Source of the DNA: Chloroflexi bacterium UBA6077
Lineage (GTDB): Bacteria; Chloroflexota; UBA6077
Length of the DNA: 64,000 nucleotides
Direction: 5' to 3'
NCBI GenBank assembly: GCA_002436065.1
Contig: DIXP01000022.1
Location: forward strand, 63,172 to 127,171
Position 1 is the first letter of the stretch. The number at the start of each line of letters is the position of its first letter. The notes under the pieces were generated by a model. It was not told the origin of the DNA and searched no databases. It worked only from the letters and a program-made list of their open reading frames with translations. Shown here piece after piece: positions 23,123 through 58,422 of the stretch. Both the position numbers and the translations under genes were made by a program.

Positions 23123-24532
23123 CTAAGCGTCTACGAGGTGGCGCTTCATGATGCGTAAAGCTGTGTCTGGAGCGATGCCAGCCAATAGACCCATGGCGTA
23201 CATGATGTAGGACTGATCGATAACCATCTTTGGTCTTCTTGGACGCAAAGAAAAGGGATTCGCAGCATCGAACAACGCACTACACAAGACGCCTCGCGGA
23301 TCGCTTCCTCGGGCGAAGATACCACCCGTGCCGATCAAATATTGGACAGTTGTCAGATCCTTTCCATACAGAAGGTTGACTGGCCCTTCTGATGTATAGA
23401 CCATCTCCAACCGTCCCGAGTGGCGCTGCACTGCCACCTCAACTGCCGCCTTGGCCAGAGCTACATCAAGGGCGTAACCCTCCGTTGATTGTGGCACGGT
23501 CGATGTCTCGCGGGTCAACCTATCGATGGCCGTATGAATTTGTTCCGGTGAAGCCCCGCACTGGACGGCAATGGCATCGGCACCAACCGCCTCGAGTATC
23601 GAAACAGCGTTGTATCGGAGTCCTAGATCGCCCTCGACAGTGCGCTTGGCAAAGGGCTCGGGCAACCCTTTCGGTAACCATGAGGTGTCACTGGGGTGAC
23701 CATGAGCTACAGAATGAACGTCGGTTGTAGCCCCGCCAACATCCACGACAACGAGATCGCCGAGCCCCTGTTCCTTAGGACTACCCTGGGCCAATAACGT
23801 TGCTGCCTGGAGTACCGCCATTGGGGTTGGCATCAGGATGTCGCCAATCAGGTCCCGCACGCGGTGTATGCCTTTGGCCTCGACGATGCGCCGCATGAAG
23901 ACTTCGCGAATAGCTGCCCGCGCAGGTTCGACGTTGAGCCGACCGAGTTCCGGCATCACGTTCTCGGTTACCACGATTTCTTTGTTCTCAGCCTGGAGGA
24001 GGTCCTCTGCATCTTCACTGGCATCGCTGTTTCCGGCGTAAAGAATGGGACAGGTGAGGGTAGAGCCAGCCAACATGCGGGCATTGAAGAGAATGACCTC
24101 AGCATCACCACCATCTGTCCCGCCTGCCAGCAGAATAATCTCTGGGCGCAACTCCTCCAGCCAGGCGATATCGCGGCGTCGAAGATGGTAGGAAAAGGCG
24201 CGCAACACCTTTGCCCCCGCGCCCAAGGCGGCACGCTTAGCGGCTTCGGCAGTGAGTTCAGGCACCAGACCGATAGCCACCATCCGAAGTCCTCCTGCGG
24301 CGCTACTTGACGCCAGGAATCGGCACTCCTCGAGGTTGGTCAGCCCCAGTTCTTTGCGTACCTGATTGAGGGCTGACTGCAGACCGACCATCACGTTGGT
24401 ATCGACCGTGGATGGTGATTGGACTCGCGCCAGAAGCTGCTCGGCCGAAACATCGACCGCGACGGCCTTTGTATAGGTACTGCCAAAATCGATCAATAGA
24501 GCGAGGCCCATTAGCTGAGACCTAAATCGCAC
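23123..24532 (-). CDS. glmL: GlmL/MutL-type mutase accessory (reactivase-like) protein
   Basis: 469 aa. LLIDFGSTYTKAVAVD and VVDVGGATTDVHSV are ASKHA-fold phosphate motifs typical of methylaspartate-mutase accessory protein GlmL. An alternative ATG start at 24511 overlaps the glmS stop by 1 nt. Confidence 0.75.
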   Translation of the reverse strand: MRFRSQLMGLALLIDFGSTYTKAVAVDVSAEQLLARVQSPSTVDTNVMVGLQSALNQVRKELGLTNLEECRFLASSSAAGGLRMVAIGLVPELTAEAAKRAALGAGAKVLRAFSYHLRRRDIAWLEELRPEIILLAGGTDGGDAEVILFNARMLAGSTLTCPILYAGNSDASEDAEDLLQAENKEIVVTENVMPELGRLNVEPARAAIREVFMRRIVEAKGIHRVRDLIGDILMPTPMAVLQAATLLAQGSPKEQGLGDLVVVDVGGATTDVHSVAHGHPSDTSWLPKGLPEPFAKRTVEGDLGLRYNAVSILEAVGADAIAVQCGASPEQIHTAIDRLTRETSTVPQSTEGYALDVALAKAAVEVAVQRHSGRLEMVYTSEGPVNLLYGKDLTTVQYLIGTGGIFARGSDPRGVLCSALFDAANPFSLRPRRPKMVIDQSYIMYAMGLLAGIAPDTALRIMKRHLVDA

Positions 24533-24972
24533 TTCAAGTCGGCGATAGCGGTTTCGGGCTTCGTTCCCGGTGGGTAGATACGATCAAAACCCATATCTGA
24601 GAAGAGTTGCTCTGTCTTGGGCCATTCTTCAGGGTCAGTCACCAGTATCCCGCCGATGTAGAGAAGGATGTTGGCTAGCCCGGCCTCCCGGCACTTGGCG
24701 CGCAGGCCCTCGCAGTCGATACGTGCCATTCCGTACAGGGACGATACTAGGATTGCGTCGGCTGCCGTTTCCCTGGCTGCACTGATGAACTCGTTGGGCA
24801 GGACCAGGGCTCCGAGATATGCAACTCTGAATCCGGCGCGCTCGAAGGCCCAGCGTAATATCGAAATTCCAGCTACATGGGCATCGAGCCCGATAGTACC
24901 CAGGACAATGGTCGGCTGCCGCTTCGCATCCGCCATTCCAGTACTACCTTTCTGAGTTACCGCGTCATTCAT
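24511..24972 (-). CDS. glmS: B12-binding small subunit of a glutamate-mutase-family enzyme (GlmS/MutS-like)
   Basis: 153 aa. TIVLGTIGLDAHVAGISIL (DxHxxG), ADAILVSSLYG (SxL) and ILLYIGG are present. Collinear with Clostridium MutS as far as I recall that sequence. Confidence 0.85.
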   Translation of the reverse strand: MNDAVTQKGSTGMADAKRQPTIVLGTIGLDAHVAGISILRWAFERAGFRVAYLGALVLPNEFISAARETAADAILVSSLYGMARIDCEGLRAKCREAGLANILLYIGGILVTDPEEWPKTEQLFSDMGFDRIYPPGTKPETAIADLKCDLGLS

Positions 24973-24994: not shown

Positions 24995-26473
24995 TCAGTA
25001 TGGTCGCTCCGCCGCCTCTTCTGAGAGTGGCCGAGATGCCCAGGTGGGAATCTGAATCACCCAGTCTAGATCTGCTGTGGTGTTTTCCCTTCGCTCCCTC
25101 TCCGCTATTCGGGACCGATGGTATTCGATCACTTCTGGCGGAAGCGGGACATTACCGTGATCCAGATATCGCACGGCGCCTCGTGCATCGCGGACGAGCT
25201 TGACCTGCGACCGGAGCGGCAACCAGGGCGAGAAGACGGTGTCTAATACTCCTGCCTCAACGGCGCGGCAGGCCCCGAGGGCAACATCTCCATCGCCGAG
25301 CTCCAGTACCTTTTCAAGGATTGCGCGCGCTTCCTTCTCGATCATTTCGCGTTCGAGACTCAGTTCCTCGCTCTCAGGGAGTCGCTGGCCTTTCAAGAGC
25401 CGCGCGATTTGAGCCGCTACTAGCATGGCCTCGCGATTGCCCTTACCTGTTACGGTAGTCCGGGCCTCGTCGGGAGACTTGATTTGACAGCCATTGCAGC
25501 CGGCCAGGGCAGCTACCGCAGTGTTCCAGGCAATCTGTCCAGCCATGGATATGGGCTCCCTCGGCCAATCGCCTACGTAGTTGTAGGCCCACGGGTACAC
25601 ATGCACGTTATGGAAACCAAACCGTTCGAAGTATTCCGGAGCAAGCTTGCTGACGACTTGGATGCCTGCGACGTCTTGAACCATGCCCATCCCCGTAGCG
25701 ATGCCCAAATCCATATACTTGGTGCCCTGCGCTGCAGCCAGGAGACCTTGGATCACCCCTACCGCCACCTTGAAGCCAAGGGTATCCCAGCCAGACAGGT
25801 TAGCGAAGTCACGTCTAAGGATAGGAACGCCACGTTCGTTGAAGTATGCGGTAAGGCGATCTATGTACTGATGGTTGTAGATCATCAATTCCAGAGGATA
25901 GTCTCGAGAGTGTTGAATGACTTGCTCGATACTCTTTATCGTTCCACAGGTCCAGCCGCCTGCGAGCGCAATTTCCCAGGCTAGGCGCGCGTCCTCGTCA
26001 TTGCCATCGGTGGATAGTGGAACTGTAGTGGACTCATTTAGTGCGCGAGCCCCTGCCACACCGTGTAGCACGATTGGGTACCCGTTTAAGTACGAAAAGC
26101 CATCGCGACGGCTGCGCTCTATGGCATCCTGTGATTTCGCGAACTGGCACTTACGGGAATAGGTGTCGGTGAAAACGTGCCAGCGGTCTGGTTTGAGATC
26201 CTCAGACTCATGGATATGATCGCTTACCTGCTCGACCAATGCGTGTCCGCAAGATGGAACGAGCTGTAGACGGTCCTCCTTCATTGCCTGTTCGTTGCGA
26301 AGAGATGCGAACTTCCACCATGGCTGTTCTCGCTGGCGGGCTACGCTTTCATCGAGCGTTGCCGGATCCATAAGTTCATCGCCTGTTGGCCATTGCCGGA
26401 GAACCTCGTGTCGGACAGTGAGGAAATAGTCCCAATCCCACTGGTCCATTCGCACATTAGTCGCCAGCGCCAT
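24995..26473 (-). CDS. GlmE/MutE-family adenosylcobalamin mutase large subunit, divergent substrate pocket
   Basis: ORF 24995..26491. An ATG at 26473 is preceded by GGAGGG. RHEVLRQWPTG, YLNGYP and the C-terminal ~110 aa (LLKGQRLPES...GDGDVALGACRAVEAGVLD...VRYLDHGNVPLP) match GlmE. The canonical glutamate-binding residues appear replaced (see findings). Confidence 0.75.
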   Translation of the reverse strand: MALATNVRMDQWDWDYFLTVRHEVLRQWPTGDELMDPATLDESVARQREQPWWKFASLRNEQAMKEDRLQLVPSCGHALVEQVSDHIHESEDLKPDRWHVFTDTYSRKCQFAKSQDAIERSRRDGFSYLNGYPIVLHGVAGARALNESTTVPLSTDGNDEDARLAWEIALAGGWTCGTIKSIEQVIQHSRDYPLELMIYNHQYIDRLTAYFNERGVPILRRDFANLSGWDTLGFKVAVGVIQGLLAAAQGTKYMDLGIATGMGMVQDVAGIQVVSKLAPEYFERFGFHNVHVYPWAYNYVGDWPREPISMAGQIAWNTAVAALAGCNGCQIKSPDEARTTVTGKGNREAMLVAAQIARLLKGQRLPESEELSLEREMIEKEARAILEKVLELGDGDVALGACRAVEAGVLDTVFSPWLPLRSQVKLVRDARGAVRYLDHGNVPLPPEVIEYHRSRIAERERRENTTADLDWVIQIPTWASRPLSEEAAERPY

Positions 26474-26579
26474 AATGTGCCCTCCAATCAATCAATTACT
26501 TAGCTTGCGTGGTACAGCGCGTACTTTCACCCACTCCGGACCTAGAAGCGACTGAAGACAGATACAGCTTGATTGCCTG

Positions 26580-27752
26580 TCATGGAGCCCATGATTGCTG
26601 GTCTACTACCATCTGAGGCACCCGTTCAAGGTCTGGGACGGCTTGGAACTCCGGGTCCACGACAACTCCTCCTGGTGCTGAGATCAAGGGCCGTCGGAGA
26701 ATCGATGTCTGGAGCTTCAAGAAACCGTTCATCTCTCCCGCAGTCTTGATTCCCAACCCTACAGCCGCTGAAGCCTCTTGGTGGCATCCGATTTCGCCAG
26801 ACACGCCGTTACCCAGGACTACCGTGAGGCCCAAACGCTTTGCCAGGGCAACCTGTTCGCCCAGAAGCCGAACGCCTCCTGACTTCATGAGCTTGAACTT
26901 GACGAACTGGGCACAGCCGAGAGCCGCCGTACGCTCAACGTCTTCCGTCCCGAGAATCGATTCATCCAGCATTAGGGGAAGTGGTGAGATGCGCGACAGT
27001 GATACCTGAGACTCCCAATCACCTGCTGGGAAGGGCTGTTCGAATAGTTCTATAGCTTCGGGAGTCACCTTCTGCACGAATTCCCGAGCGTCATCGAAGG
27101 AATAACCCTGATTAGCATCGATCCGGATCAGTGTGCCTGGGGCTTGCCTGGCCAGTTCCTGGATTAAGGTAACGCGATGGATATCAAGGCTGACGTCGAA
27201 GCCTACCTTGACCTTGATGGTAGTGTACTTTCGCTCTATTTGGGTCCAGAAGCCTGACTCTAGCTCTGGTTCGTGCTCTGCAGATAGGAGGCCTACCAGG
27301 GGTACCAGGGCCGAAGGGACTACCTTTGGCTCGTCACCACTCGGGATACGTCGCGACACCAGTTCTAACGCGGTCATCAAAGGAGAAACGGGATATCCCC
27401 CGTGTGCGGCATAGGGGAGGATGCTCTCGATGGCAGTCTCTGGCGACATGCCGACTACTTTGGGACCGTGAGCGCACAGAAAATCCCATATGTCCTCGGC
27501 ACTCTCGGGGACGTAGCCTTGACACGCTGTGACTTCGCCCCAGGCTGTGCGCCCATCTTCCGTACGCACTTGGATAAGAAACGTGTCGAAACTGTGGAAG
27601 GTGGCGAAGGACAAATGGTAGGGCTCTTTAAGGGGTTGCTTCATCCTGTAGAGGTCGACCGCAACGATTGGGTGTGTCTCCTCGCGCCTACGGTCGTAAT
27701 GGGTGTGGAGATGGCCTTGCGAATTCGAATCCTTGTAGTTCTCTGTCAACAC
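26580..27752 (-). CDS. enolase-superfamily enzyme, muconate-lactonizing (MLE) subgroup (dipeptide-epimerase/racemase-like)
   Basis: 390 aa. Motifs are TIKVKVG (KxK), IRIDANQGY (metal Asp), LFEQPFP (metal Glu), LMLDESI (metal Asp) and KFKLMKSGG (second catalytic Lys). GTG start is preceded by GTGAGGTGA. Confidence 0.75.
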   Translation of the reverse strand: MLTENYKDSNSQGHLHTHYDRRREETHPIVAVDLYRMKQPLKEPYHLSFATFHSFDTFLIQVRTEDGRTAWGEVTACQGYVPESAEDIWDFLCAHGPKVVGMSPETAIESILPYAAHGGYPVSPLMTALELVSRRIPSGDEPKVVPSALVPLVGLLSAEHEPELESGFWTQIERKYTTIKVKVGFDVSLDIHRVTLIQELARQAPGTLIRIDANQGYSFDDAREFVQKVTPEAIELFEQPFPAGDWESQVSLSRISPLPLMLDESILGTEDVERTAALGCAQFVKFKLMKSGGVRLLGEQVALAKRLGLTVVLGNGVSGEIGCHQEASAAVGLGIKTAGEMNGFLKLQTSILRRPLISAPGGVVVDPEFQAVPDLERVPQMVVDQQSWAP

Positions 27753-28008: not shown

Positions 28009-28265
28009 TCATCCCCTTTGATGGGTGCAGAAAGGGGCCTGGATTCGCCAGGCAATGGAGGGACTTCATCTCTTGACACACCCCCAGGCGTGTCCTATCA
28101 TAATGCCCGGCGTAAACGACATATTGTTGTCGATAAGGCTGTCTGGCTGGATGACTCGCCATAGTACGAGTATGAGTTTCTGGTGGTCATCGGTGTCGTG
28201 ATTGCCTGACGCCCAATCGATAAGGTAATAATTGAGAAGTACAGTTCCAAAGATCGGTGAGGATT

Positions 28266-29390
28266 ATGCCTGAGCTTGGTGTAGACAACGACACTCGTTT
28301 AGAGATCATGCGTTTCATAGCAGAGATGGATAGTCCTATTGGTGCAGATGCTCTTGCAAGCCTGTTAAAAGATCGCGGAATAAGTCTCACTTCAACTGCC
28401 GTTCGTTACCATCTACGGATGTTGGATCAACAGGGTTTTACCTCGCGAATTGGCAAGCAAGGAAGAGTGATCACATCAAGAGGATGGGACGAATTACAGC
28501 GTTCTCGTGTTGATGCTCGGATGCAGCAAGGACTTGCAGTTTACGAGACGGCGGCACAGGTGGCGGCTCTGGGGTGGGCAAAGGGAAATGGGCATGTTGT
28601 CGGGGCGCTCACAATCTTCCCTACCGAAGAACTCTCCACAGTACTTCTGTATGCAGTCAAGAGCTGTCGGGCTGGTTTGTGCATAAGCGATAGAATGGCA
28701 CTGCTGAAGAGTGGCGATAAGTTCGGCACGAAAGTGATACCTCCAGATAAGACGGGAATAGTAACTGTTGCTACAACCGGCATCGATGGTTTCCTGTTGT
28801 CTAACGGTGTCTTGTTTCGACCTACCTTCGGTGGCATTGTCGAAGTCATAGACTGGCATCCATATCGTTTCGTTGACATCGTGGATTTTGGTCGGGGAAC
28901 TCGCGCTCCTGTGGATATACTGATCTCCTCCGGTAGCACACATTTGCTGGGAATCATAGAGAAAGGCAATGGTCTCTTGCTGGCAGACATACGGGAGATA
29001 ATAGGTGCAGCCAGGGAGCATGTGCTACGCCTTTTGCGCGACATAGAGACGTATGGCCTGGGTGGCGTGCTGATGGTCGGACAGATCGGGCAGCCAGTGA
29101 TGGGCGTTCCAGTGCAGCAGCATACGTTTGGGGTGGCAATGATTGCAGGTATCAATCCTACCGTTGCTGCTTTCGAGGCTGGTGTATCGGCAGAGTATTC
29201 GCTGAACCAGGGAATGATAGACTTTGCATCCCTTCGCTCAGTAGAGCAGTTGGCGCCTACCCTGTTCGATAGGAATCAGTTGGCAGTGGGTGGGCGACTG
29301 GTAATATGGGAGCAGACTGAGCAGGTATCTCTAGATAGGGGGCACCATCTCCGCCAAGAAAGTCGACACGATCTAGAGATACCTGCTTAG
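28266..29390 (+). CDS. NrpR-like transcriptional regulator (winged HTH + DUF128/NrpR regulatory domain), copy 1
   Basis: ORF 28257..29390. DNDTRLEIMRFIAEMDSPIGADALASLLKDRGISLTSTAVRYHLRMLDQQGFTSRIGKQGRVITSRGWDEL matches the N-terminal pattern of methanogen NrpR (AVRYHLK.LD..G...KVG..GR.IT.KG). ATG at 28266 follows GGTGAGGA. Confidence 0.75.
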   Translation: MPELGVDNDTRLEIMRFIAEMDSPIGADALASLLKDRGISLTSTAVRYHLRMLDQQGFTSRIGKQGRVITSRGWDELQRSRVDARMQQGLAVYETAAQVAALGWAKGNGHVVGALTIFPTEELSTVLLYAVKSCRAGLCISDRMALLKSGDKFGTKVIPPDKTGIVTVATTGIDGFLLSNGVLFRPTFGGIVEVIDWHPYRFVDIVDFGRGTRAPVDILISSGSTHLLGIIEKGNGLLLADIREIIGAAREHVLRLLRDIETYGLGGVLMVGQIGQPVMGVPVQQHTFGVAMIAGINPTVAAFEAGVSAEYSLNQGMIDFASLRSVEQLAPTLFDRNQLAVGGRLVIWEQTEQVSLDRGHHLRQESRHDLEIPA

Positions 29391-29524: not shown

Positions 29525-30409
29525 TCACTTGATGGGGTCCTGTGCTTGCCCAAGGAACTCACGTTCGTACTGGGTGAAGCGGGTGTAGTCGATCAGTTCG
29601 TACAGCTCCTTACGAGTCATCATACGATCGAGCCAGCCTGTCTGGGTACCGGTGCGCTTTAGATCAACGTAGAAGGCCTGCATTGCCCGCAGCGCCACTC
29701 TAACCGCAGACATGGGGTAGATGACCATCTTGTAGCCCATCTCCTGGAACTGCTGGGCCGTCAGATAGGGAGTCTTACCGAACTCGGTCATGTTGGCCAA
29801 TAAGGGGGCTTTCACCGCCCGGGCATACGCCGCGAACTCCTCTGGCGACGCCATGGCCTCAGGGAATATGGCGTCGGCGCCTGCCTCGGCACAAGCTACA
29901 CCCCGCTTAACAGCCTCGTCGAATCCCAGTGGCGCACGCGCGTCTATGCGAGCAATGATCACGAAGTCCGGATCACGCCGAGCTGCCACGGCCGCGCGGA
30001 CCTTCCCGACCATCTCCTCGAGGGCAATGCATTCTTTCCCCTCGACGTGACCACAGCGCTTGGGCGTAACCTGATCCTCGATGTGCAGGCCGGCGAGCCC
30101 GGCCCGCTCGTATTCCCATACCGTGCGCATGACGTTCATCGCGTTGCCATAGCCGGTATCGGCGTCGGCAATCACCGGTAGTTGTACCGCGTTGCAGATG
30201 TTCTTGGCATTGAACGCCATCTCAGTGAGTGTCAAGAGACCGGTATCGGGCATGCCGGTCATGCTGTTTGACACGCCAGCGCCGGTCATGTACACCGCCT
30301 CGAAGCCAGCCTGTTGGATCAGCCTGGCAGACAGGGCATCGTAAGCCCCCGGCATGACAAGGATGGTGTCTCGCGCCAGCAGCTCACGCAATCGTCGGCT
30401 GGTATGCAT
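29525..30409 (-). CDS. isocitrate lyase/PEP mutase-family enzyme (methylisocitrate lyase PrpB-like / carboxyvinyl-carboxyphosphonate phosphorylmutase-like)
   Basis: ORF 29525..30442. An ATG at 30409 is preceded by GGGGAGGA. VMPGAYDALSARLIQQAGFEAVYMTGAG, IADADTGYGN and GLHIEDQVTPKRCGH match the family. Confidence 0.8.
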   Translation of the reverse strand: MHTSRRLRELLARDTILVMPGAYDALSARLIQQAGFEAVYMTGAGVSNSMTGMPDTGLLTLTEMAFNAKNICNAVQLPVIADADTGYGNAMNVMRTVWEYERAGLAGLHIEDQVTPKRCGHVEGKECIALEEMVGKVRAAVAARRDPDFVIIARIDARAPLGFDEAVKRGVACAEAGADAIFPEAMASPEEFAAYARAVKAPLLANMTEFGKTPYLTAQQFQEMGYKMVIYPMSAVRVALRAMQAFYVDLKRTGTQTGWLDRMMTRKELYELIDYTRFTQYEREFLGQAQDPIK

Positions 30410-30513
30410 AATGAATCCTCCCCTTGATAGTGTGCCGATCATCCGCCGCGACTCCTGACCAAGTCAGTGACGAGCCGGCATCTACCACCCTTCCTCAGCA
30501 GTAGCGGTAAGTG

Positions 30514-32861: not shown

Positions 32862-34220
32862 TTATTGGATGGGTTGACCCAGTAGCGAGAGCAATCCGTC
32901 CAGGCTGCGGACCCGCTCAATGCCGTCGATTTCGATGGCAATCCTCTCAGCGGCATAGCGGTCAATCGCTGTTGTTGCCAGCTCCATGAACTTCTCCAGC
33001 AGCGCATCCCTGGTCATGGGGCGCTCCGGTTCCCCCAAGGGCAGATCGACGGTGCTGCAGAGTCTCCGCCCGTCTGCCAGTCTGACCTCCATCGATACGT
33101 GCCTGCTGTCCTCTCCGAAGGACGGGTCGGCGACCAGGAGAACCTTCTTGGCGGTCGCCATGACCGCTTTGTCTCCAAGTCCGGCCATGTATCCGGAGAG
33201 ACCTGCTCCCTTACCCGAGATCGTCAGCGCGACGGAGTAGGGGGTGCTGAGCTGCGCCGCGATGAAGGACTTGGGCTCCTGGTTCCCCGTTTGGGATGAG
33301 CACAGCGGGCTCACCGTGACGACGATCTCCGCCACCATGTCGGGTGGCAACGGTCCCGTCTCTGCCACGATCTCTCTGGCCGCGTCGATGGAGCTGTTGC
33401 AGAACCTGCAGGAGGCGTAGGGCTTGGTCCCCACCTCCAAGATCCTGAACTCCTCGCCCAGTCCCCGGTTCAGCCAACCCAGGTCCGGCTCATCGGACAT
33501 AGCTCGACAGAAGCCGTGAGGGCCCTCCAGGATGGTCTCTGGGCCGGTGAAGCCAGCGGATGCCAGAAGCGCCGCGTAGATGCCACTCTGAGCACTACGT
33601 CCAGGGTGGAAACGCTCGATCATGGCGCCCTGAGCGAGAAACTCCACAAGTCCCGCTGCCTGAGTGCCGCCGATCCCCAGGGCGTTGGCGGTCTCTTCCA
33701 AACCCAGCGACATAGCCCTGGAGGCGGCGGCAGTCGCTGCGACGGCGCCCACCGTCGCCGTCGTGTGGAAGCCTCGCCGACGATGCGAGGGATTCACCGC
33801 GTAGGCGAGGCGGATCCCGACCTCGTATCCAGCCACGACGGCGACGAGTAACTCATCACCGCTCAGGTGATGCTTCTCGGCGATGGCCAAGGCTGTCGGA
33901 ATGACGGCCGCGCCAGGGTGGAGATAGGTCCAGCGATGGGTGTCGCCCATCTCCACCCCGTGAGCCATGGATCCGTTGGCCAGGACCGCATTGGCTACGG
34001 GTACCTTCAGCCCTTCGCCGATCACCGTTGCCTCCTCAGTCCCGCCCATGGAGCGCACCAAGCCGGTCACCAGACGGCTGGACTCCATCTCGTGGCCGGC
34101 GATCGCGTTGCCAAGCAGGTCCAGGACCAACTCCTTGGTCCTCTCCACTACTTGCCCTGGGAGGTCCGAGTAGCGTAGTTGCGAGCAGAATTGCGCGACC
34201 TGCAGAGTTTCGTTGCTCAC
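32862..34220 (-). CDS. MmgE/PrpD-family protein (2-methylcitrate dehydratase-like), paralogue 1
   Basis: 452 aa. The N-terminus is AQFCSQLRYSDLPGQVVERTKELVLDLLGNAIAG. MAHGVEMGD, HPGAAVIPTALA and KPYASCRFCNSSIDA match the family. Confidence 0.85.
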   Translation of the reverse strand: MSNETLQVAQFCSQLRYSDLPGQVVERTKELVLDLLGNAIAGHEMESSRLVTGLVRSMGGTEEATVIGEGLKVPVANAVLANGSMAHGVEMGDTHRWTYLHPGAAVIPTALAIAEKHHLSGDELLVAVVAGYEVGIRLAYAVNPSHRRRGFHTTATVGAVAATAAASRAMSLGLEETANALGIGGTQAAGLVEFLAQGAMIERFHPGRSAQSGIYAALLASAGFTGPETILEGPHGFCRAMSDEPDLGWLNRGLGEEFRILEVGTKPYASCRFCNSSIDAAREIVAETGPLPPDMVAEIVVTVSPLCSSQTGNQEPKSFIAAQLSTPYSVALTISGKGAGLSGYMAGLGDKAVMATAKKVLLVADPSFGEDSRHVSMEVRLADGRRLCSTVDLPLGEPERPMTRDALLEKFMELATTAIDRYAAERIAIEIDGIERVRSLDGLLSLLGQPIQ

Positions 34221-34276
34221 GACATCATCCCTCTCAACGGACGTTGCGTCCCGGACTCGCCTTCGGACCGTAGAAC

Positions 34277-35662
34277 TTAGAGTGCCAGCGTCTTGGCCAG
34301 GATCCTGGTGTCACTCAGGCTGGGGAGGGACCCTAGAATGCCAAGGGCCTCATCTGTCTTCTTCCGACCCAGGATCGGCTCTGAGAGCGCACGGAATTTC
34401 GCTTCCAACTCGGCTGGCGTGGCCGCGTTCTCAGGGTCGCCCTTGGGCCACTCGACTCGGGCGGAGACGACGCTCCCGTCGGTGCGGGTGATATCGACCT
34501 GGCAAGGATAGCGGGTGGGCCACAGCCGCTCGGCCTCCTCGTCGACCTGCCAGCGGACCTTCTGAGCCAGAGCCAACACGGCCTGATCTCGTATACCCGT
34601 CTCGTTGTACTCCTCAAGGAAGGCGCGGCGCTTGACGATGGCCACCGCAGCGGCGAAGGGTGCGCTGAACTGGGCATCTACGACCGATGTGGGGTTGTAC
34701 TTGCGCTCACGAGGTTCAGTTATCGAGCGCACCAGCGGGTACTCTGCCATGCCGACGACTACCTCGGCGACCTGCTCGGGCCGCAGATCTTCCCGCTGCA
34801 CTATCTCCAGGGTAGCGTCGACGATGGGTGCGGCAAATCGGCAGCACGCGTGCACCTTGATGCTGTTCTCCAGCAGATCCCACTTCTCCCCGAGGCCACC
34901 CGTGATGCGCTCAGGATCGAAGTGGTGCTTGTAGGAGAATGCTGGAAGCCATCCTTCGTCACAAATCAGACTCTCGCTAGGGCCGCGATAGTTTTCTCGA
35001 GACAGATAGGCCGATATCACTCCCGCCATGGCCGCGTGGCCGGCGTGGTATCGCTTGTTCCAGGCCCCATTGGTCCGATGGGTTGTGAGTCCCGCAGACT
35101 GGCTGGCGCCCATGCCTATTGCGCTGACCATCTGCTCGACGCTAAGCCCCAGCAGAGTGCCTGCGGCAACTGCTGCGCCAATGCTCCCGCAGACTCCAGT
35201 GGGATGGAAGCCTTGCAGGTACATGTCCCCTAGATGAGCCTCACCCAGGCGGATCATGATCTCGTAGCCGAGGGCGACGGCATGGATCAGGTCGCGACCG
35301 CTCTTGCCCTCCATTTCGGCGGTGGCGAAGGCAGCGGGTACTATAGCGACACTGGGGTGCTGAGTGCCCTCGCGGTGGTCGTCGTCCAGCTCCAGGGCAT
35401 GCCCCGTGGTGCCGTTGATCAGTGCCGCGAGGGGCGCGGAGGTCCTCTTGTCTCGGGCTATCGCGGTGCAGGAACCATCAACGGGGCCCCATTGGGTGGC
35501 GAGCTTGGCGATGATTTGAGAAGAAGTCGCGGTGGTGCCCCCTACGACGCAGCCCAGATGGTCGGTGATGTATACCTGCGTGGCGTCAACGACGCTGGCG
35601 GGCAGATCCTCATAGCGGGTGCGGACGATCCAATCGGCTATCGATCGCGTGAAGTCGTACAT
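34277..35662 (-). CDS. MmgE/PrpD-family protein, paralogue 2
   Basis: 461 aa. IADWIVRTRYEDLPASVVDATQVYITDHLGCVVGG, GHALELDDDH, HPSVAIVPAAFA and KVHACCRFAAPIVDA match the family. Confidence 0.85.
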   Translation of the reverse strand: MYDFTRSIADWIVRTRYEDLPASVVDATQVYITDHLGCVVGGTTATSSQIIAKLATQWGPVDGSCTAIARDKRTSAPLAALINGTTGHALELDDDHREGTQHPSVAIVPAAFATAEMEGKSGRDLIHAVALGYEIMIRLGEAHLGDMYLQGFHPTGVCGSIGAAVAAGTLLGLSVEQMVSAIGMGASQSAGLTTHRTNGAWNKRYHAGHAAMAGVISAYLSRENYRGPSESLICDEGWLPAFSYKHHFDPERITGGLGEKWDLLENSIKVHACCRFAAPIVDATLEIVQREDLRPEQVAEVVVGMAEYPLVRSITEPRERKYNPTSVVDAQFSAPFAAAVAIVKRRAFLEEYNETGIRDQAVLALAQKVRWQVDEEAERLWPTRYPCQVDITRTDGSVVSARVEWPKGDPENAATPAELEAKFRALSEPILGRKKTDEALGILGSLPSLSDTRILAKTLAL

Positions 35663-50920: not shown

Positions 50921-50983
50921 TAGAATCGCTGGACATGGAGTGGTGGCGATGGAAGCTCACTCCCAAAGTGGTAGGTGGACTTG

Positions 50984-52030
50984 ATGGCAGAAACCGTTGT
51001 AGACAACGACACGCGTCTGGAGATACTGCGGCTCGTGTCTGAGATTGATAGTCCCATCGGCGCCGACTCACTTGCGGTCAAGCTGGAGGACCGGGGCATA
51101 AATCTCACCCCCGATGCCGTTCGATATCACTTGAGGATGCTGGACCAACAGAAGCTGACCTATCGGATCGGCAAGAGGGGGAGGATGGTTACTCCTGAGG
51201 GATGGAGGGAACTGAGGCGTTCCAGGGTGGACACTCGCATCGGGTGGGGCCTCGCCCGTCAGGAAACCATGGCCCAGCAGGTGACCTTCGATCCCTACAG
51301 CCGACGGGGACAGGTGGCAGCTTCACTCACCATCTTCCCGATCGAGGAGCAGGAGGGGGTGCTCCGCCATGTCGCGAGGGTGGCCCGTGCCGGGCTCTGT
51401 CTGAGCGAGCGGATGGCTCTAGCGAACAGCGGCGACAGGGTCGGCTCGGTAACGATACCGCCAGGTAAGGCCGGGATCATCACCGTGAGCACCTCGACCA
51501 TCACCGGCATCCTCGTGTCGCAGGGTTTCCTGGTGAGCACCACCTACGCGGGGATCGCGGAGATCGCCGACTGGCGGCCCTATCGCTTCGTGGATGTGCT
51601 TCGATATGGCCAGGGTTCCATGGACTCGGTGGAGAACCTCATCCGGCCGGGAAGCACCCGGGTGGGCCATACAGCCGAGCGGGGCAGGGGGTTGGTGATC
51701 GCGGATGTCCGCGAGCTGGTGGGCGTGGCGCGGGAGCGTGCTCGCGATCTGCTGAAGCAGTTGAGGGGTTGCGGCATCGGCGGGGTATTGATGGTTGGAC
51801 AGGTTGGGCAACCGGTGCTGGGGGTCCCGGTCAGGGACCACACCTTCGGCGTGGCCAGCCTAGCCGGAGTGAACGCCACGCTCGCCGCCTACGAGTTGAA
51901 TGTAGCCACCGATTTTCACCTGGTGAACTGTCTCGTGGATTACTCTTCTCTTCTCCCCGCGGAGCACTTACTCCCAGAGGCCGAGGTGAGATCGTGGGAG
52001 AGCGCCGGCTCGCTGGTGATGTGGGAGTAG
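50984..52030 (+). CDS. NrpR-like transcriptional regulator (wHTH + DUF128), copy 2
   Basis: ORF 50975..52030. DNDTRLEILRLVSEIDSPIGADSLAVKLEDRGINLTPDAVRYHLRMLDQQKLTYRIGKRGRMVTPEGWREL matches the family. Collinear paralogue of 28266..29390. ATG at 50984 follows AGGTGGA. Confidence 0.75.
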   Translation: MAETVVDNDTRLEILRLVSEIDSPIGADSLAVKLEDRGINLTPDAVRYHLRMLDQQKLTYRIGKRGRMVTPEGWRELRRSRVDTRIGWGLARQETMAQQVTFDPYSRRGQVAASLTIFPIEEQEGVLRHVARVARAGLCLSERMALANSGDRVGSVTIPPGKAGIITVSTSTITGILVSQGFLVSTTYAGIAEIADWRPYRFVDVLRYGQGSMDSVENLIRPGSTRVGHTAERGRGLVIADVRELVGVARERARDLLKQLRGCGIGGVLMVGQVGQPVLGVPVRDHTFGVASLAGVNATLAAYELNVATDFHLVNCLVDYSSLLPAEHLLPEAEVRSWESAGSLVMWE

Positions 52031-54072: not shown

Positions 54073-55257
54073 TCACTTCGCGTTACCCCCATTAGAGGGT
54101 GCGAATCGGACCCTCAGGATGCCATCTTCAAGCTTGGCGCCCTGGGTCCGCATGCCACTCAGCGCCCTGGGCAGCACCAGGTTTCGTTTCTGGTTTCCAA
54201 TCTGGAGGATCAGCTCGTCTCCCACCTGCATCAGATCGATGTCGCCCTTGCTGGCGAAGGGCAGGGACAGCAGCAGTTGGTAGCCGTCCTCGGCCTTCTC
54301 GAAGCTGTAGGTCCGGCCCTGATGGTAGACGGCGGTGGGGTCTTCGGTGCCGAACAGCCGCTCCGCCACTTCCTTCAGCAGGCTCAGTCCCACGACCTCC
54401 TGGTTCATCAGCGGTAAGTACCGAATGGGCGTGGGCGCGAAGCCCTCCTCCACCATCTTCATATACCGTGCCTGGGATGCCTTCCAGGTATCGAAGTAGC
54501 TGTCTGTTACTTCTTCTGGGATCACCCGGTTGCAGATCACCAGGTCGGTTGGGTAGCCGTACAGGTTCAGGTAGGTGAAGGTCCGCTGAGCCTCCTTCAC
54601 CACCATCTTCTCGGCGTTGACTACCAACCTCACAGAGCTGAGGCTGGGATCGGCCAGCAGCTTCTGCATTCGGTCCAGTTGACGGAACAGGTCGGCCGCC
54701 GAGTCGTACACATCGTCGCCCGGCAGCGGGATTCCGACCAACGGCTTCACCACGGGTCGGGCCACCTGGATCAACCTGCGCTGGATCGGAAAGATCTTCT
54801 CCATCCACCAGCGGGCGATCTCAGGGAAGGTGAGCAGCTCCAGGGTCTCCGCCGTGGGGGCGCAGTCCAGGATAATTGTGTCGTACTCTCGGCTGTCGTA
54901 CAGACGTACCAACTGGAGCAGACTGGCCAGCTCGCTCATCCCCGGTGGGACGGTGAGCTCCTCGGCCACTATGCTGTCGATCCCGCGCCAGGAGAGGAGT
55001 GCCTCCAGGTATTTCTGTATCGTGCCCCAGTGGGTCTGCACCTCGTGGTAGACGTCGACCTCCTGGCCCCAGAGGTTCTCGGCTATGGAAACGGGTTCCG
55101 GCCCTAGCCGCAGGTCGAAGGAGTCGGCTAGGCTGTGGGCCGCGTCGGTGCTGAGCACTATCGTCTTGTGCCCCAACTGCGCGGAGCGCAGGGCTGTCGC
55201 CGCCGCCATGGTAGTCTTGCCGACGCCACCCTTGCCCGTGTATAGCAGGATTCGCAT
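54073..55257 (-). CDS. ArsA/Get3(TRC40)-family P-loop ATPase with C-terminal Hsp20/CS-like beta-sandwich
   Basis: 394 aa. ILLYTGKGGVGKTTMAAATA (deviant Walker A) and VLSTDAAHSLADSF (signature DTAPTGH-like region) are present. The C-terminal YQLLLSLPFASKGDIDLMQVGDELILQIGNQKRNLVLP resembles alpha-crystallin-like strands. Confidence 0.8.
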   Translation of the reverse strand: MRILLYTGKGGVGKTTMAAATALRSAQLGHKTIVLSTDAAHSLADSFDLRLGPEPVSIAENLWGQEVDVYHEVQTHWGTIQKYLEALLSWRGIDSIVAEELTVPPGMSELASLLQLVRLYDSREYDTIILDCAPTAETLELLTFPEIARWWMEKIFPIQRRLIQVARPVVKPLVGIPLPGDDVYDSAADLFRQLDRMQKLLADPSLSSVRLVVNAEKMVVKEAQRTFTYLNLYGYPTDLVICNRVIPEEVTDSYFDTWKASQARYMKMVEEGFAPTPIRYLPLMNQEVVGLSLLKEVAERLFGTEDPTAVYHQGRTYSFEKAEDGYQLLLSLPFASKGDIDLMQVGDELILQIGNQKRNLVLPRALSGMRTQGAKLEDGILRVRFAPSNGGNAK

Positions 55258-55508: not shown

Positions 55509-55601
55509 GGACGTAGTATCCACCCTACTCGCCCCGACCACAAAGCCCGCCGGAAATCTCCGGCGGGCTCTTCTGTTCCCCTCCTCGATGCCATCGCTGG
55601 C

Positions 55602-55967
55602 TCAGGCCTTGTTCACCTGCTCGGTTGGCTTCTGAGTCGTGCTGCGTGGGATCAGGATCGCGCAGGCAATCACTCCCACCATGATCATGCCTGCGGCCAG
55701 AGTCGAGGCGGCACCGAAGCCGGATCGGTCCACGATCAACCCCAGGATGAAGGGTCCAAATACTGTTCCCAGGTCACAGGTGAAACGGTACATCCCCATT
55801 CCTCGGCCTAGCGAACGGTCAGGCACGAGGTCGGCTATCAGGGCGGAGAGCATGTTGTTGGCTACGATCGCCATGGAGATTAGGAAGGTGCTTATCGTGA
55901 AGATCCATATGCTCTCGCCGGTGAGCAGGTAGAGATTGCCGGCGACGCCCAGGAGCAGCAATGGCAT
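55602..55967 (-). pseudogene. 5'-truncated MFS transporter gene (C-terminal ~4 TM helices only)
   Basis: The 121-aa ORF resembles the last helices of MFS permeases (LIADLVPDRSLGRGMGMYRFTCDLGTVFGPFILGLIVD). No N-terminal half is detectable upstream. Confidence 0.5.
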
Positions 55968-56142
55968 GACCTTCTTAATCGAGTGAGGTTATACGAGTTG
56001 GGATGTCCGGCGCGTATGGTCTTATGGTGTGGATAGCCGCGCACTGTAGCACTCCTGCACTTCTGATGCAAAGGTGAGAGCTACCGATCTTCCCGGCCGG
56101 AGAAGGGAAAAAGCCATCTCTGGTGCCTCCGGATCCCTGGCC

Positions 56143-56184
56143 CTCCCTGAGGCCTGGGAAGTTCTGCCGCCAGGCCTCAGGGAG
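56143..56184 (-). terminator. strong hairpin (15-bp perfect stem) downstream of the acnX pair
   Basis: ctccctgaggcctgg (56143-56157) pairs with ccaggcctcagggag (56170-56184). No U-tract, so terminator function is uncertain. Confidence 0.35.
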
Positions 56185-56311
56185 AAGCCAGAACTGAAGT
56201 CATAGCCATCCAACGCCTCTGCAGATGTGCCTCGCTCTGAGCTCATTCGGGTAAGTGGCATGAGTTGGCCGGTGGAGACGGCTATCGAGGAATGCAAGCC
56301 GCAGCGACCGT

Positions 56312-56737
56312 TCAGTTCTCCGCGGCCACCCGTTCGACGGTTCCGTCGGAGCGGATGGTCACTCGGTCCCCTGTCCGAAGCCGCTGGAAGTCCATCTCGT
56401 TCAGGGCAATCACCGGCACAACTCTGTCATACAGCTCGCTTGCCACCACTGCTCCCAGTGCCAGCATCGGGTCGACACAAGAAGCGACGATGGCAGCGGG
56501 CGCCGTTCCTACCCGTATGGTCTCAAGCAGCACTGTGCTGGCGGTAGTCGAGCCTCGTGAATAGGGTAGCACCAGCACTTGCCCCGTGACTTTCTGCCCC
56601 GATAGCTCGTGACGCCGGTCTATGATCTCCCCAGACGCCGGATCCAAACCGCCCCAGAAACTGAGTGGTTCCCTCGTCACGAGAGCGGATCCTGATGCAT
56701 TTCCCTCTACCATCGGAGTACCTGTCATTAGTTCCAT
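56312..56737 (-). CDS. aconitase X swivel-domain protein (DUF126, AcnX small subunit)
   Basis: ORF 56312..56908. An ATG at 56737 is preceded by AGGAGGAA. GNASGSALVTREPLSFWGGLDPASGEIIDRRHELSGQKVTGQVLVLPYSRGSTTASTVLLE is the DUF126 pattern. Overlaps the large subunit by 10 nt. Confidence 0.75.
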   Translation of the reverse strand: MELMTGTPMVEGNASGSALVTREPLSFWGGLDPASGEIIDRRHELSGQKVTGQVLVLPYSRGSTTASTVLLETIRVGTAPAAIVASCVDPMLALGAVVASELYDRVVPVIALNEMDFQRLRTGDRVTIRSDGTVERVAAEN

Positions 56738-57990
56738 AGTGATTCCTCCTTGCAGACCTGCCCCAATACTGCAGATTCGACACAGTCCTCCAGGCTCCCG
56801 AAGGCTACCCGCCTCTTCAGGACACCTGGACCATAGTACGCGCACTTTCCAGAGCTGGTCATCACGACACGGTCTTCGGCTCGGAGCATAGGTGATAGGA
56901 GGATGCAAGCATCTGCCACGACCTTCACGCCGAATCGTTCCAACTCCGGCCAGAAGAGGCTAGCTTTCACCGCGTCTCGTACTGAACGGCTGGACATCAC
57001 CACCAGGCGTGTTCCGGGATGGCGATCTCTGCCTTTCACTAATCGACCAAGCTTTGTGAACTCTTCTTTTGAGAAATGGGGGCATCCCAGCACCACGACG
57101 TCGATATCGCCCTGCGAGCAGGTGGACATCTGTCTCCGATACTCCCTGAGCGTGGTCAGGTCCACCTGCACCACATCTTCCGGCTGTTGTCCCTGGAAGG
57201 CTGCCTCCAGTGTGGGGGCTTCGGGTGTTGTCCCTACGGCATGGAAGAGAGCCACACGGCCCGAAGATGCCGCGGCGGCGCCGAGAGCCTTCAACTGGTC
57301 CTCGGTAACCCCTGTTGGCAATCCGTCCAGGACGGGTATCCTCTGCCCTGCCGTCTTGCCCAGATAGAAGCCGAGCACCGGATAGAAGGAGTCGTCTTGC
57401 AGGAGCGCAGCCGGCAGAGCTGTTAGCCTGAAGAGGATCTGGCCTCGCCGATTCTCGCTGAGATGCAGCCCACTCCTGGGAGCTCTTCCCGTGAGGGCCA
57501 TGCACAGGTCCACGTAGTCACCGTACCGATTGGTTCGAGCTCCCAGCACCGAGTTCGCGAAGACTATAGCGTTGGATTCGGACCACCCGACCTGCTCGCC
57601 CCTGGCCGGTCGGATCCCCGATTGATAGGGGGCGCAGGTCCAGGTTGGCAGGCAGCCCATCCCGACATAGGCGCGCATGATCCTCAGCCCCTTTTCAGCA
57701 AACTCCTCGGACACGGAGAGGTTGCGCCACCCCTCTTCGTCCATGGGACCAGCGTTCAATGAGGTTGGTACCACGACGCGAGCGCCCAGCCGGGCGAAGG
57801 TTTCCGCGAAATCCAGGCTAGACTCTCCCAGGTAGACAGCTCCGTCGATATGGACCCTGGTAATGTCCATCAACTCCTCGGCGCCCTCGATCTCGGCCGT
57901 CTTCACCAGAATGGACATAGCCATCCGGGTTGCCTCACCTCGCTTTCCCTCAAGCATCTCTCGGTCTACTCTGCTCAGCTTCAGCGCCAT
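56728..57990 (-). CDS. aconitase X catalytic-domain protein (DUF521, AcnX large subunit)
   Basis: ORF 56728..58110, whose first 40 codons run through the T-box terminator. An ATG at 57990 is preceded by GAGGAAGGA. DREMLEGKRGEATRMAMSILVKTAEIEGAEELMDITRVHIDG and TWTCAPYQ match the family. Confidence 0.75.
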   Translation of the reverse strand: MALKLSRVDREMLEGKRGEATRMAMSILVKTAEIEGAEELMDITRVHIDGAVYLGESSLDFAETFARLGARVVVPTSLNAGPMDEEGWRNLSVSEEFAEKGLRIMRAYVGMGCLPTWTCAPYQSGIRPARGEQVGWSESNAIVFANSVLGARTNRYGDYVDLCMALTGRAPRSGLHLSENRRGQILFRLTALPAALLQDDSFYPVLGFYLGKTAGQRIPVLDGLPTGVTEDQLKALGAAAASSGRVALFHAVGTTPEAPTLEAAFQGQQPEDVVQVDLTTLREYRRQMSTCSQGDIDVVVLGCPHFSKEEFTKLGRLVKGRDRHPGTRLVVMSSRSVRDAVKASLFWPELERFGVKVVADACILLSPMLRAEDRVVMTSSGKCAYYGPGVLKRRVAFGSLEDCVESAVLGQVCKEESLWN

Positions 57991-58091
57991 GATCCTTCCT
58001 CGTCTGCCATCTGAGTTCTCGTACTGCTCGCGTGACCCTCGGCCTTTTCGTACGGTGTTCGAGTCGCGTTCCTCCGGCAATCCGGGCAAAC

Positions 58092-58385
58092 AAAAATCCC
58101 GTCCCTGCAAGGGACGGGATTGATGATTTGCTATCCCGCGGTACCACCCAAATTAGCGCAACCGCTCGCTCGTCGAGGTACGTGTTCATACCCCCGTCAC
58201 AGTTAACGGCTGACGAATCCGGCCAAGCCTACTGGAGCGAGTGGACTCACTCTTTTGGTTGGCAGCTCAGGAAGGATTTTCGGCGGGGACTCCACATCCG
58301 GTCACACCAAACCCGGACTCTCTGAGTGTCGCCCCTATCCGCCTACTCGTTTCCGTCGAAGCCTTTAGGCATATGAGCAATACAA
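58092..58385 (-). promoter_or_regulatory. T-box riboswitch leader (tRNA-sensing transcription attenuator)
   Basis: On the minus-strand RNA, Stem I has a GA/K-turn base (GGC-uuc-GA-c-GGAA / UUCC-u-GA-gcu-GCC). The specifier loop has AGUA on the 5' side and GAAAAUCC on the 3' side (58274-58281). Other elements are the AGAGAG bulge (58318-58323), distal-loop GGUGUGA (58302-58308), F-box CCGUUA (58204-58209) and T-box core AAUUUGGGUGGUACCGCGGGAU (58133-58154). The terminator is AAUCCCGUCCC-uugca-GGGACGGGAUU followed by UUUG (58092-58121), and its 5' arm can instead pair with the T-box (GGG...CGGGA / UCCCG..CCC) as an antiterminator. Confidence 0.85.
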
Positions 58386-58394
58386 CCGCGCCAT

Positions 58395-58422
58395 AATATA
58401 CGCTCTTCTCCAGTACCGTCAA
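58395..58422 (-). promoter_or_regulatory. sigma-70-type promoter TTGACG-N16-TATATT for the T-box leader
   Basis: The -35 is the reverse complement of 58417-58422 and the -10 is the reverse complement of 58395-58400. It sits immediately upstream of Stem I and 14 bp outside the IS remnant. Confidence 0.6.

Follow-up and report, generated by a model that had tools for sequence, protein, structure and literature searches.

A canonical T-box riboswitch, most likely sensing tRNA-Ile, lies ahead of an aconitase-X gene pair in a Chloroflexota genome

The specifier codons of T-box riboswitches are routinely used to assign function to the genes that they control. What, then, is the meaning of a T-box whose codon names one amino acid, when the enzyme encoded behind it handles another? 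The question is raised by a 64 kb stretch of contig DIXP01000022.1 from Chloroflexi bacterium UBA6077 (referred to here, at its full length of 64,000 nucleotides, as the window), where an initial annotation made from the DNA sequence had claimed a complete transcriptional T-box ahead of the large and small subunit genes of an aconitase-X (AcnX) enzyme. Both the riboswitch and the gene pair are indeed there. We think it probable that a canonical attenuating T-box, most likely one that senses tRNA-Ile, gates a two-gene aconitase-X operon in this Chloroflexota genome. The specifier amino acid (isoleucine) does not agree with the downstream hydroxyproline/proline-type dehydratase; such agreement is usual in T-boxes, but is not structurally required.

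A covariance-model scan of the whole window, as the initial annotation had proposed, found a single Rfam family, the T-box (RF00230), which Infernal aligned to the minus strand at 58107..58368 over model positions 1-219 of 219, scoring 103.6 bits (E = 9.2e-22; the gathering score is 93). All of the T-box elements that had been listed for this strand were recovered in their places by the alignment and by inspection of the sequence. Stem I (58265..58362, minus strand), which was aligned with high posterior probabilities, has a K-turn at its base, a specifier loop with an AGUA/GAA S-turn, an AGAGA bulge, and the distal loop GUUUGGUGUGA. Its base consists of a GC/GC helix, the K-turn strands UUCGAC and UGA, and then the helix GGAA/UUCC; the specifier loop has ACGAGUA on its 5′ side and GAAAAUCC on its 3′ side, and its S-turn borders the upper helix GGCGG/CCGCC. 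The sizes of this loop (7 nt on the 5′ side and 8 nt on the 3′ side) and the number of layers from the K-turn to the loop are those of the Rfam consensus. The minimum-free-energy fold of Stem I, in which GGA is paired with the first UCC, was no better than that of shuffled sequence (z = -0.04); since such a fold takes no account of the K-turn and S-turn motifs, we set it aside. The leader also contains Stem II with its AGUA, Stem III, the F-box CCGUUA, a candidate 5-bp IIA/B pseudoknot (CGUCA...UGACG) picked out by reading the sequence, and the T-box core AAUUUGGGUGGUACCGCGGGAU. It is preceded by a promoter-like sigma-70 site, TTGACG-16-TATATT (58395..58422, minus strand), identified only by its match to the consensus at 10 of 12 positions.

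The 3′ domain of the leader can adopt two competing structures. An antiterminator (58111..58149, minus strand, from a fold of 58152..58108) is made up of helix A1 (GGG/CCC), a 7-nt bulge, UGGUACC (58146..58140), and helix A2 (GCGGGAU/AUCCCGU) with a G.U closing pair, and has an energy of -11.5 kcal/mol when the domain is folded without the 3′ strand of the terminator. An intrinsic terminator (58095..58121, minus strand), which was found by a terminator scan and by folding and overlaps the 3′ half of the antiterminator, has a 3-nt loop, the tail TTTTGTTTG, and a stem of 12 pairs rather than the 11 first counted; folded alone, the domain forms it at -29.9 kcal/mol (z = -3.7). The two structures are mutually exclusive, as had been claimed, because both use the segment AUCCCGUCCC. 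No disabling change is seen in the leader, and its sequence is identical in four independent metagenome assemblies of the same strain, all from hydrocarbon or toluene-degrading cultures. The RNA is a canonical transcription-attenuating T-box riboswitch, and the element itself is ordinary: it shares with class I T-boxes (RF00230), such as the leaders of ileS and leuS in Firmicutes, a long Stem I, Stem II, a IIA/B pseudoknot (here a candidate), Stem III, the UGGN bulge, a helix A2 with its G.U closing pair, the competition between terminator and antiterminator, and the codon columns. What sets it apart is its cargo, an AcnX dehydratase instead of an aminoacyl-tRNA synthetase, a recognized biosynthetic gene, or a transporter.

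Which tRNA does the switch read? By the rule of TBDB, the specifier comprises nucleotides 2-4 counted from the 3′ end of the specifier bulge, and only frames -1, 0, and +1 are allowed (PMC7778990). When the rule is applied to GAAAAUCC, frame 0 reads AUC (Ile), and frames -1 and +1 read AAU (Asn) and UCC (Ser), respectively. We calibrated the slot by reading the corresponding Infernal model columns ('uuc' plus 'a') in four T-boxes taken from annotated records with known cargo. Three leuS leaders gave CUU-A (Listeria), CUC-G (Anoxybacillus), and CUC-C (Brevibacillus), while the leader of asnA from Bacillus sp. N5-665 (L176; cargo identified by TIGR00669 at 344 bits), with an 8-nt loop, GAAGAACC, gave AAC-C. 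The slot was correct in all four leaders, and a C follows the codon in two of them. In the window, the same columns directly hold A58277-U58276-C58275, followed by C58274, so that the canonical codon (58275..58277, minus strand) is AUC, which had also been the first choice of the initial annotation. The asnA leader is the closest parallel in layout: the 3′ side of its loop (GAAGAACC) shares the pattern GAA-N-NNC-C with ours (GAAAAUCC), and its Rfam score is similar (116 bits). There, however, AAC matches the aspartate-ammonia ligase encoded downstream, whereas here AUC does not match the known chemistry of the enzyme. Two of the comparison records, L176 (NZ_CP093325.1, 5.5 Mb) and L177 (NZ_LR134401.1, 0.8 Mb), carry plasmid labels in PLSDB, yet contain the housekeeping T-box genes asnA and leuS, and look like chromosomes or pieces of chromosomes.

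The bulge of the antiterminator narrows the choice further. Its UGGU predicts an A73 discriminator, as the initial annotation had read. Bacterial tRNA-Ile and tRNA-Pro carry A73, and tRNA-Asn and tRNA-Ser carry G73. The UGGU is thus in accord with Ile and Pro but speaks against Asn and Ser; AAU and UCC are unlikely specifiers, given that G73 could only form a wobble pair with UGGU. Of the alternatives that had been offered, AAU does occupy an allowed frame but runs into the G73 of tRNA-Asn, and AAA (Lys) is not found in any frame accepted by TBDB and was rejected. UCC in frame +1 and CCU (Pro) in frame +2 had not been considered. On this evidence, tRNA-Ile(GAU) is the likely ligand of the T-box.

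If so, expression would follow the steps of the established T-box model. RNA polymerase would start ~25 nt upstream of Stem I, which would then dock the tRNA via its elbow and via codon-anticodon pairing at AUC. The ACCA end of an uncharged tRNA would pair with UGGU in the bulge, stabilizing the weak antiterminator and allowing read-through into acnX-L and acnX-S, and with charged tRNA the far stronger terminator would form instead. Any physiological link between isoleucine starvation and the AcnX enzyme is inferred.

What does this switch control? The large subunit gene (56728..57990, minus strand) encodes 420 amino acids and matches PF04412 (485 bits) and NCBIfam NF051439 (452 bits). Its ATG at 57990 is the first past the terminator, 105 nt on (~100 nt had been estimated), and is preceded by GAGGAAGG; the Shine-Dalgarno sequence ahead of the gene is intact, and the stretch from the terminator to the gene holds no remnant of another gene. 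The small (swivel) subunit gene (56312..56737, minus strand) encodes 141 amino acids, matches PF01989 (97 bits), aligns to the N-terminal domain of 7cnp (102 bits), and its start overlaps the stop of the large subunit gene by 10 nt. The closest database protein has 87% identity and is named as coming from a Chloroflexota bacterium. The best solved relative of both subunits is AtAcnX (PDB 7cnp; 322 + 102 bits), and we mapped the published active-site residues of that enzyme onto the pair (PMC8184944; the numbering of the PDB chain is native + 10). In the large subunit, Asp203 corresponds to D49, Ile206 to V52 (a conservative change), Asn233 to N79, Cys273 to C119, Glu292/Ser293/Asn294 to E138/S139/N140, Cys508 to C362, Lys530 to K382, and Tyr534 to Y386. 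In the small subunit, Trp35 corresponds to W28, Ser70 to S63, and Thr72 to T65. Both contacts to the substrate nitrogen (D49, and T65 of the small subunit) are conserved, and those to the pyrrolidine ring, W28 and V52, match those of homologues from hydroxyproline clusters.

The family assignment and these conserved substrate-binding residues are direct observations, and by them the gene pair looks like a heterodimeric aconitase-X that resembles the dehydratases of cis-3-hydroxy-L-proline. Such an enzyme would dehydrate a 3-hydroxy-2-amino(imino) acid to a 2-imino/2-oxo acid. Compared with the Type IIa enzymes (A. brasilense and others) and the Type I enzyme AtAcnX/LhpI (7cnp), the two-subunit architecture and the substrate-binding residues are alike, whereas the pair in the window lies outside a hydroxyproline cluster, has Thr at the position of Cys71 and C303 at that of Ser449, and is missing an equivalent of Cys510. 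These residue differences are small. The C303/Ser variation also occurs among relatives from hydroxyproline clusters: an alignment has Ser and Cys alternating in the motif G[S/C]PHFS (C303 codon, 57082-57084) within one clade of hydroxyproline-type AcnX. This position is that of the third cluster ligand in archaeal [3Fe-4S]/[4Fe-4S] enzymes, and the type of Fe-S cluster in Type IIa enzymes may therefore differ between close relatives. A separate observation concerns the fusion of AcnX subunits. Some Chloroflexota relatives have the large subunit and the swivel in one protein (L001, 6001-7938; L002, 6001-7812), in which a Pro-rich linker leads to a C-terminal swivel domain, whereas in the characterized fused Type I enzymes the swivel domain is N-terminal (PMC8184944); the Chloroflexota fusion looks independent of the Type I fusion.

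The same residues bear on two other roles for the pair. TkAcnX, the archaeal Type IIb mevalonate-5-phosphate dehydratase (7cnr), is likewise a heterodimer, and C119, C303, and C362 are found at the positions of its cluster ligands. However, the similarity is lower (211 + 73 bits, against 322 + 102 for AtAcnX), and Ala47, Ser50, Leu27(S), and Val64(S) of TkAcnX are replaced here by Asp, Val, Trp, and Thr. These wrong landmark residues exclude a role in the mevalonate pathway. The initial annotation had suggested that AcnX might stand in for LeuCD or HacAB, as an isomerase/dehydratase in the citramalate route to isoleucine or, in place of homoaconitase, in the aminoadipate route to lysine. An Ile specifier would suit the first of these, AcnX enzymes do dehydrate 3-hydroxy acids, and mevalonate 5-phosphate may be seen as resembling citramalate; genes for glutamate mutase and for PrpD-family proteins, which handle C5-dicarboxylates, are also present in the window, but 20-40 kb away. 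On the other hand, Pfam finds only the AcnX families in the pair and no match to Aconitase or Aconitase_C, AcnX proteins are without the 20 conserved active-site residues of the aconitase family, and the AcnX enzymes characterized so far dehydrate only, without isomerization (PMC8184944). In addition, D49 and T65 (nitrogen) and W28 and V52 (ring) are of the hydroxyproline type and not the archaeal A/V/L/S set, and the Lys codon lies outside the accepted specifier frames. With the hydroxyproline landmarks kept, and the nearest homologues in hydroxyproline clusters (see below), we abandoned this suggestion as very improbable.

Genomic context of the homologues also speaks for hydroxyproline. All eight of the nearest homologous proteins with contigs that we read (64-70% identity) adjoin genes for hydroxyproline catabolism or related uptake, with neighbors that include Pro_racemase-family and DHDPS-family proteins, DAO, Fer2_4/FAD dehydrogenase subunits, and an ABC or TctC uptake system. 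We also sampled 38 more distant AcnX loci that lack those hydroxyproline-cluster genes. There, the commonest neighbor family was ornithine cyclodeaminase (OCD)/mu-crystallin, with six members, followed by prolyl peptidases; OCD/mu-crystallin is the family of pyrroline-2-carboxylate reductases. No families of branched-chain amino acid biosynthesis (ilv/leu) were among the 25 commonest neighbor families of these distant loci. The operon in the window consists of the two acnX genes only, without a reductase, epimerase, or transporter beside them, and the genes called in the 64 kb window included no Pro_racemase, DHDPS, DAO, or OCD (a few open reading frames at 43.5-45.4 kb were left unscanned).

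Could the switch then read tRNA-Pro? The codon CCU (58275..58273, minus strand) begins 2 nt downstream of the canonical slot, and it matters because the known chemistry of the enzyme leads to proline. It would be presented if the specifier loop were widened by the opening of its two closing A-U pairs, and the leader would then be a proline-salvage T-box, in keeping with an enzyme that retains every cis-3-hydroxy-L-proline landmark and with relatives that reside in hydroxyproline clusters or beside OCD/mu-crystallin genes. The UGGU of the bulge is compatible with the A73 of bacterial tRNA-Pro. In Bacillus subtilis, the T-boxes of proBA and proI (specifier CCU) raise the supply of proline when tRNA-Pro is uncharged. 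That logic would suit the enzyme here, and CCU is present at the junction of loop and stem, although this likeness is one of logic and codon and not of compared sequences, and CCU in our leader lies 2 nt off the register, with part of it in a helix. In TBDB, moreover, CCU accounts for 60% of Pro specifiers, more than any other codon, but at +2 it falls outside the frames -1/0/+1 (PMC7778990). The loop is aligned by Infernal with top posterior probabilities and in consensus geometry, the canonical slot held in every calibration leader, CCU sits half inside the GGAA/UUCC helix and is followed by a U and then a helix of just 2 bp, and a reductase gene was found neither in the operon nor in the 64 kb window. 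We consider it unlikely that tRNA-Pro is the ligand, and retain tRNA-Ile as the preferred reading.

Is the T-box/AcnX pairing found elsewhere? Profile scans of metagenome and genome contigs yielded 160 AcnX loci, to which the contigs of the eight near homologues were added; the survey covered 171 other AcnX-L loci, 152 of them with 300 nt or more of sequence upstream. A motif search, with Rfam applied to the candidates, found no T-box upstream of AcnX in any of those 152 loci, and the survey of homologues suggested in the initial annotation thus yielded no second case. In the only close relative (L008, 87% protein identity), the contig ends inside acnX-L, and the upstream region lies beyond it. 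A single-protein scan of genome contigs for further AcnX relatives, and a search with the N-terminal 88 residues for the missing end of the L008 contig, both returned nothing. Full-text searches of a paper library turned up no article that connects T-boxes to DUF521, AcnX, or hydroxyproline. For the sample covered here, the association is new.

A unique association might be a matter of chance, and the DNA downstream of the operon is of interest in this respect. The small subunit gene is followed by ~345 nt of non-coding DNA with a very stable hairpin (56130..56205, minus strand), which is GC-rich and long, with a stem of ~25 bp, no U-run, and a ViennaRNA energy of -56.8 kcal/mol for the fold of 56121..56230. 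As modeled, it is probably the 3′ end of the transcript or an RNA-stabilizing structure. Beyond it lies an orphan fragment of an MFS transporter (121 aa, with its own ATG; 55602-55967, minus strand), followed by a terminator-like hairpin at 55544-55569. We found no relatives of this fragment beyond itself, and three-frame translation of the 345-nt gap upstream of it, inspected by eye, revealed no obvious remnant of its missing part. With a hairpin-bearing gap and an MFS fragment downstream, the regulated unit is the acnX pair. Synteny with an 82%-identical relative stops at the acnX-S stop codon, where the relative has an IclR regulator.

Such a locus could be an evolutionary accident, in which a rearrangement brought the Ile T-box of some other gene (the MFS transporter, now truncated, is one candidate) in front of acnX. 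The switch would still work, and the Ile mechanism would be compatible with this, but its amino acid logic would be non-adaptive, or the arrangement very recent. The absence of a T-box at all other surveyed loci, the orphan fragment on the same strand without found relatives, and the break in synteny at the end of acnX-S are all consistent with such an origin. Yet the promoter-like site, the T-box motifs, the terminator, the Shine-Dalgarno sequence, and both genes are all intact, nothing of another gene remains between the terminator and acnX-L, and the arrangement is the same in the four assemblies, though these are of the same strain. We regard an accident as possible, but on the whole doubtful.

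Alternatively, the enzyme may have changed to suit the switch. AcnX could have been re-purposed for isoleucine supply, as an Fe-S enzyme that would convert L-threonine (or a close 3-hydroxy-2-amino acid) to 2-oxobutanoate independently of PLP. Since the dehydration of L-threonine gives this precursor of isoleucine, such a reaction would explain an Ile T-box. The proposal is one of chemical analogy: L-threonine is (2S,3R), as is cis-3-hydroxy-L-proline, and lacks only C5. The Ile specifier, the retention of the amine- and carboxylate-binding residues for an amino acid substrate, and the location of the gene pair outside a hydroxyproline cluster would all be in line with it, and no partner enzyme would be required, unlike in the route to proline. 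The window protein and its 87%-identical relative also share A137S, beside E138, and N379S/G, beside K382, both near catalytic residues. However, the number of changes specific to this clade is not unusual, the known ring-contact positions have not been remodeled (W28 and V52 are as in the homologues from hydroxyproline clusters), ilv/leu genes are not among the common families of the AcnX neighborhoods surveyed, and the Pseudomonas enzyme is inactive on L-serine, with threonine not reported (PMC5144071). A switch of substrate of this kind appears quite improbable to us.

Several points weigh against our preferred view of a tRNA-Ile-sensing T-box gating the acnX operon, the first of which is the mismatch itself: a sensor of isoleucine stands before an enzyme whose product line runs from pyrroline-2-carboxylate to proline, which is unusual for T-boxes. 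Secondly, the base after AUC is a C instead of the usual purine (although the calibration leaders have a C there in two of four cases), and a Pro codon lies 2 nt downstream of the specifier slot. Thirdly, we found no orthologous leader among the loci of relatives, which leaves no basis for judging the specifier by its conservation, and no tRNA gene was found in the 64 kb window, which thus lacks a host tRNA-Ile for comparison. Finally, the locus looks rearranged, with its orphan MFS fragment and the end of synteny at the acnX-S stop, and the coupling of T-box and acnX may therefore be recent.

The window contains other features of note. An island of organic acid metabolism, mostly on the minus strand, occupies positions 15233-44000. 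It includes genes for the glutamate mutase proteins MutL (23123-24532), the B12-binding MutS (24511-24972), and MutE (24995-26491), an enolase-superfamily protein (26580-27752), a PEP-mutase/isocitrate-lyase-family protein (29525-30442), two PrpD/MmgE proteins (32862-35662), a GntR regulator, three transporter sets of the TctABC type, CoA-transferases III, thiolases, and enoyl-CoA hydratases, and looks like a pathway of the methylaspartate/mesaconate type. Two plus-strand genes (28257-29390 and 50975-52030) encode proteins with NrpR regulatory domains and HTH_12, which is notable in a Chloroflexota contig; NrpR is best known as an archaeal nitrogen repressor. The gene at 54073-55257 (minus strand) encodes an ArsA-family ATPase that carries an HSP20-like domain at its C-terminus, with a small AF_1253-family protein downstream of it (a gene call taken from matching contigs).

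What the locus means depends on how the mismatch came about. A well-formed T-box of the Ile type controls a member of an enzyme family with two known activities, neither of which is tied to isoleucine. Should the capture have been a chance event, the locus would be a caution against predicting function from T-boxes, and should the ligand prove to be tRNA-Pro, it would document a specifier that is 2 nt out of register, something of consequence for automatic specifier assignment. An adaptive coupling would imply either an unrecognized substrate of AcnX or an unrecognized link between isoleucine limitation and the use of hydroxyproline. Were the enzyme indeed re-purposed, aconitase X would gain a third physiological role, and isoleucine biosynthesis a new entry point, in an anaerobic Chloroflexota bacterium.

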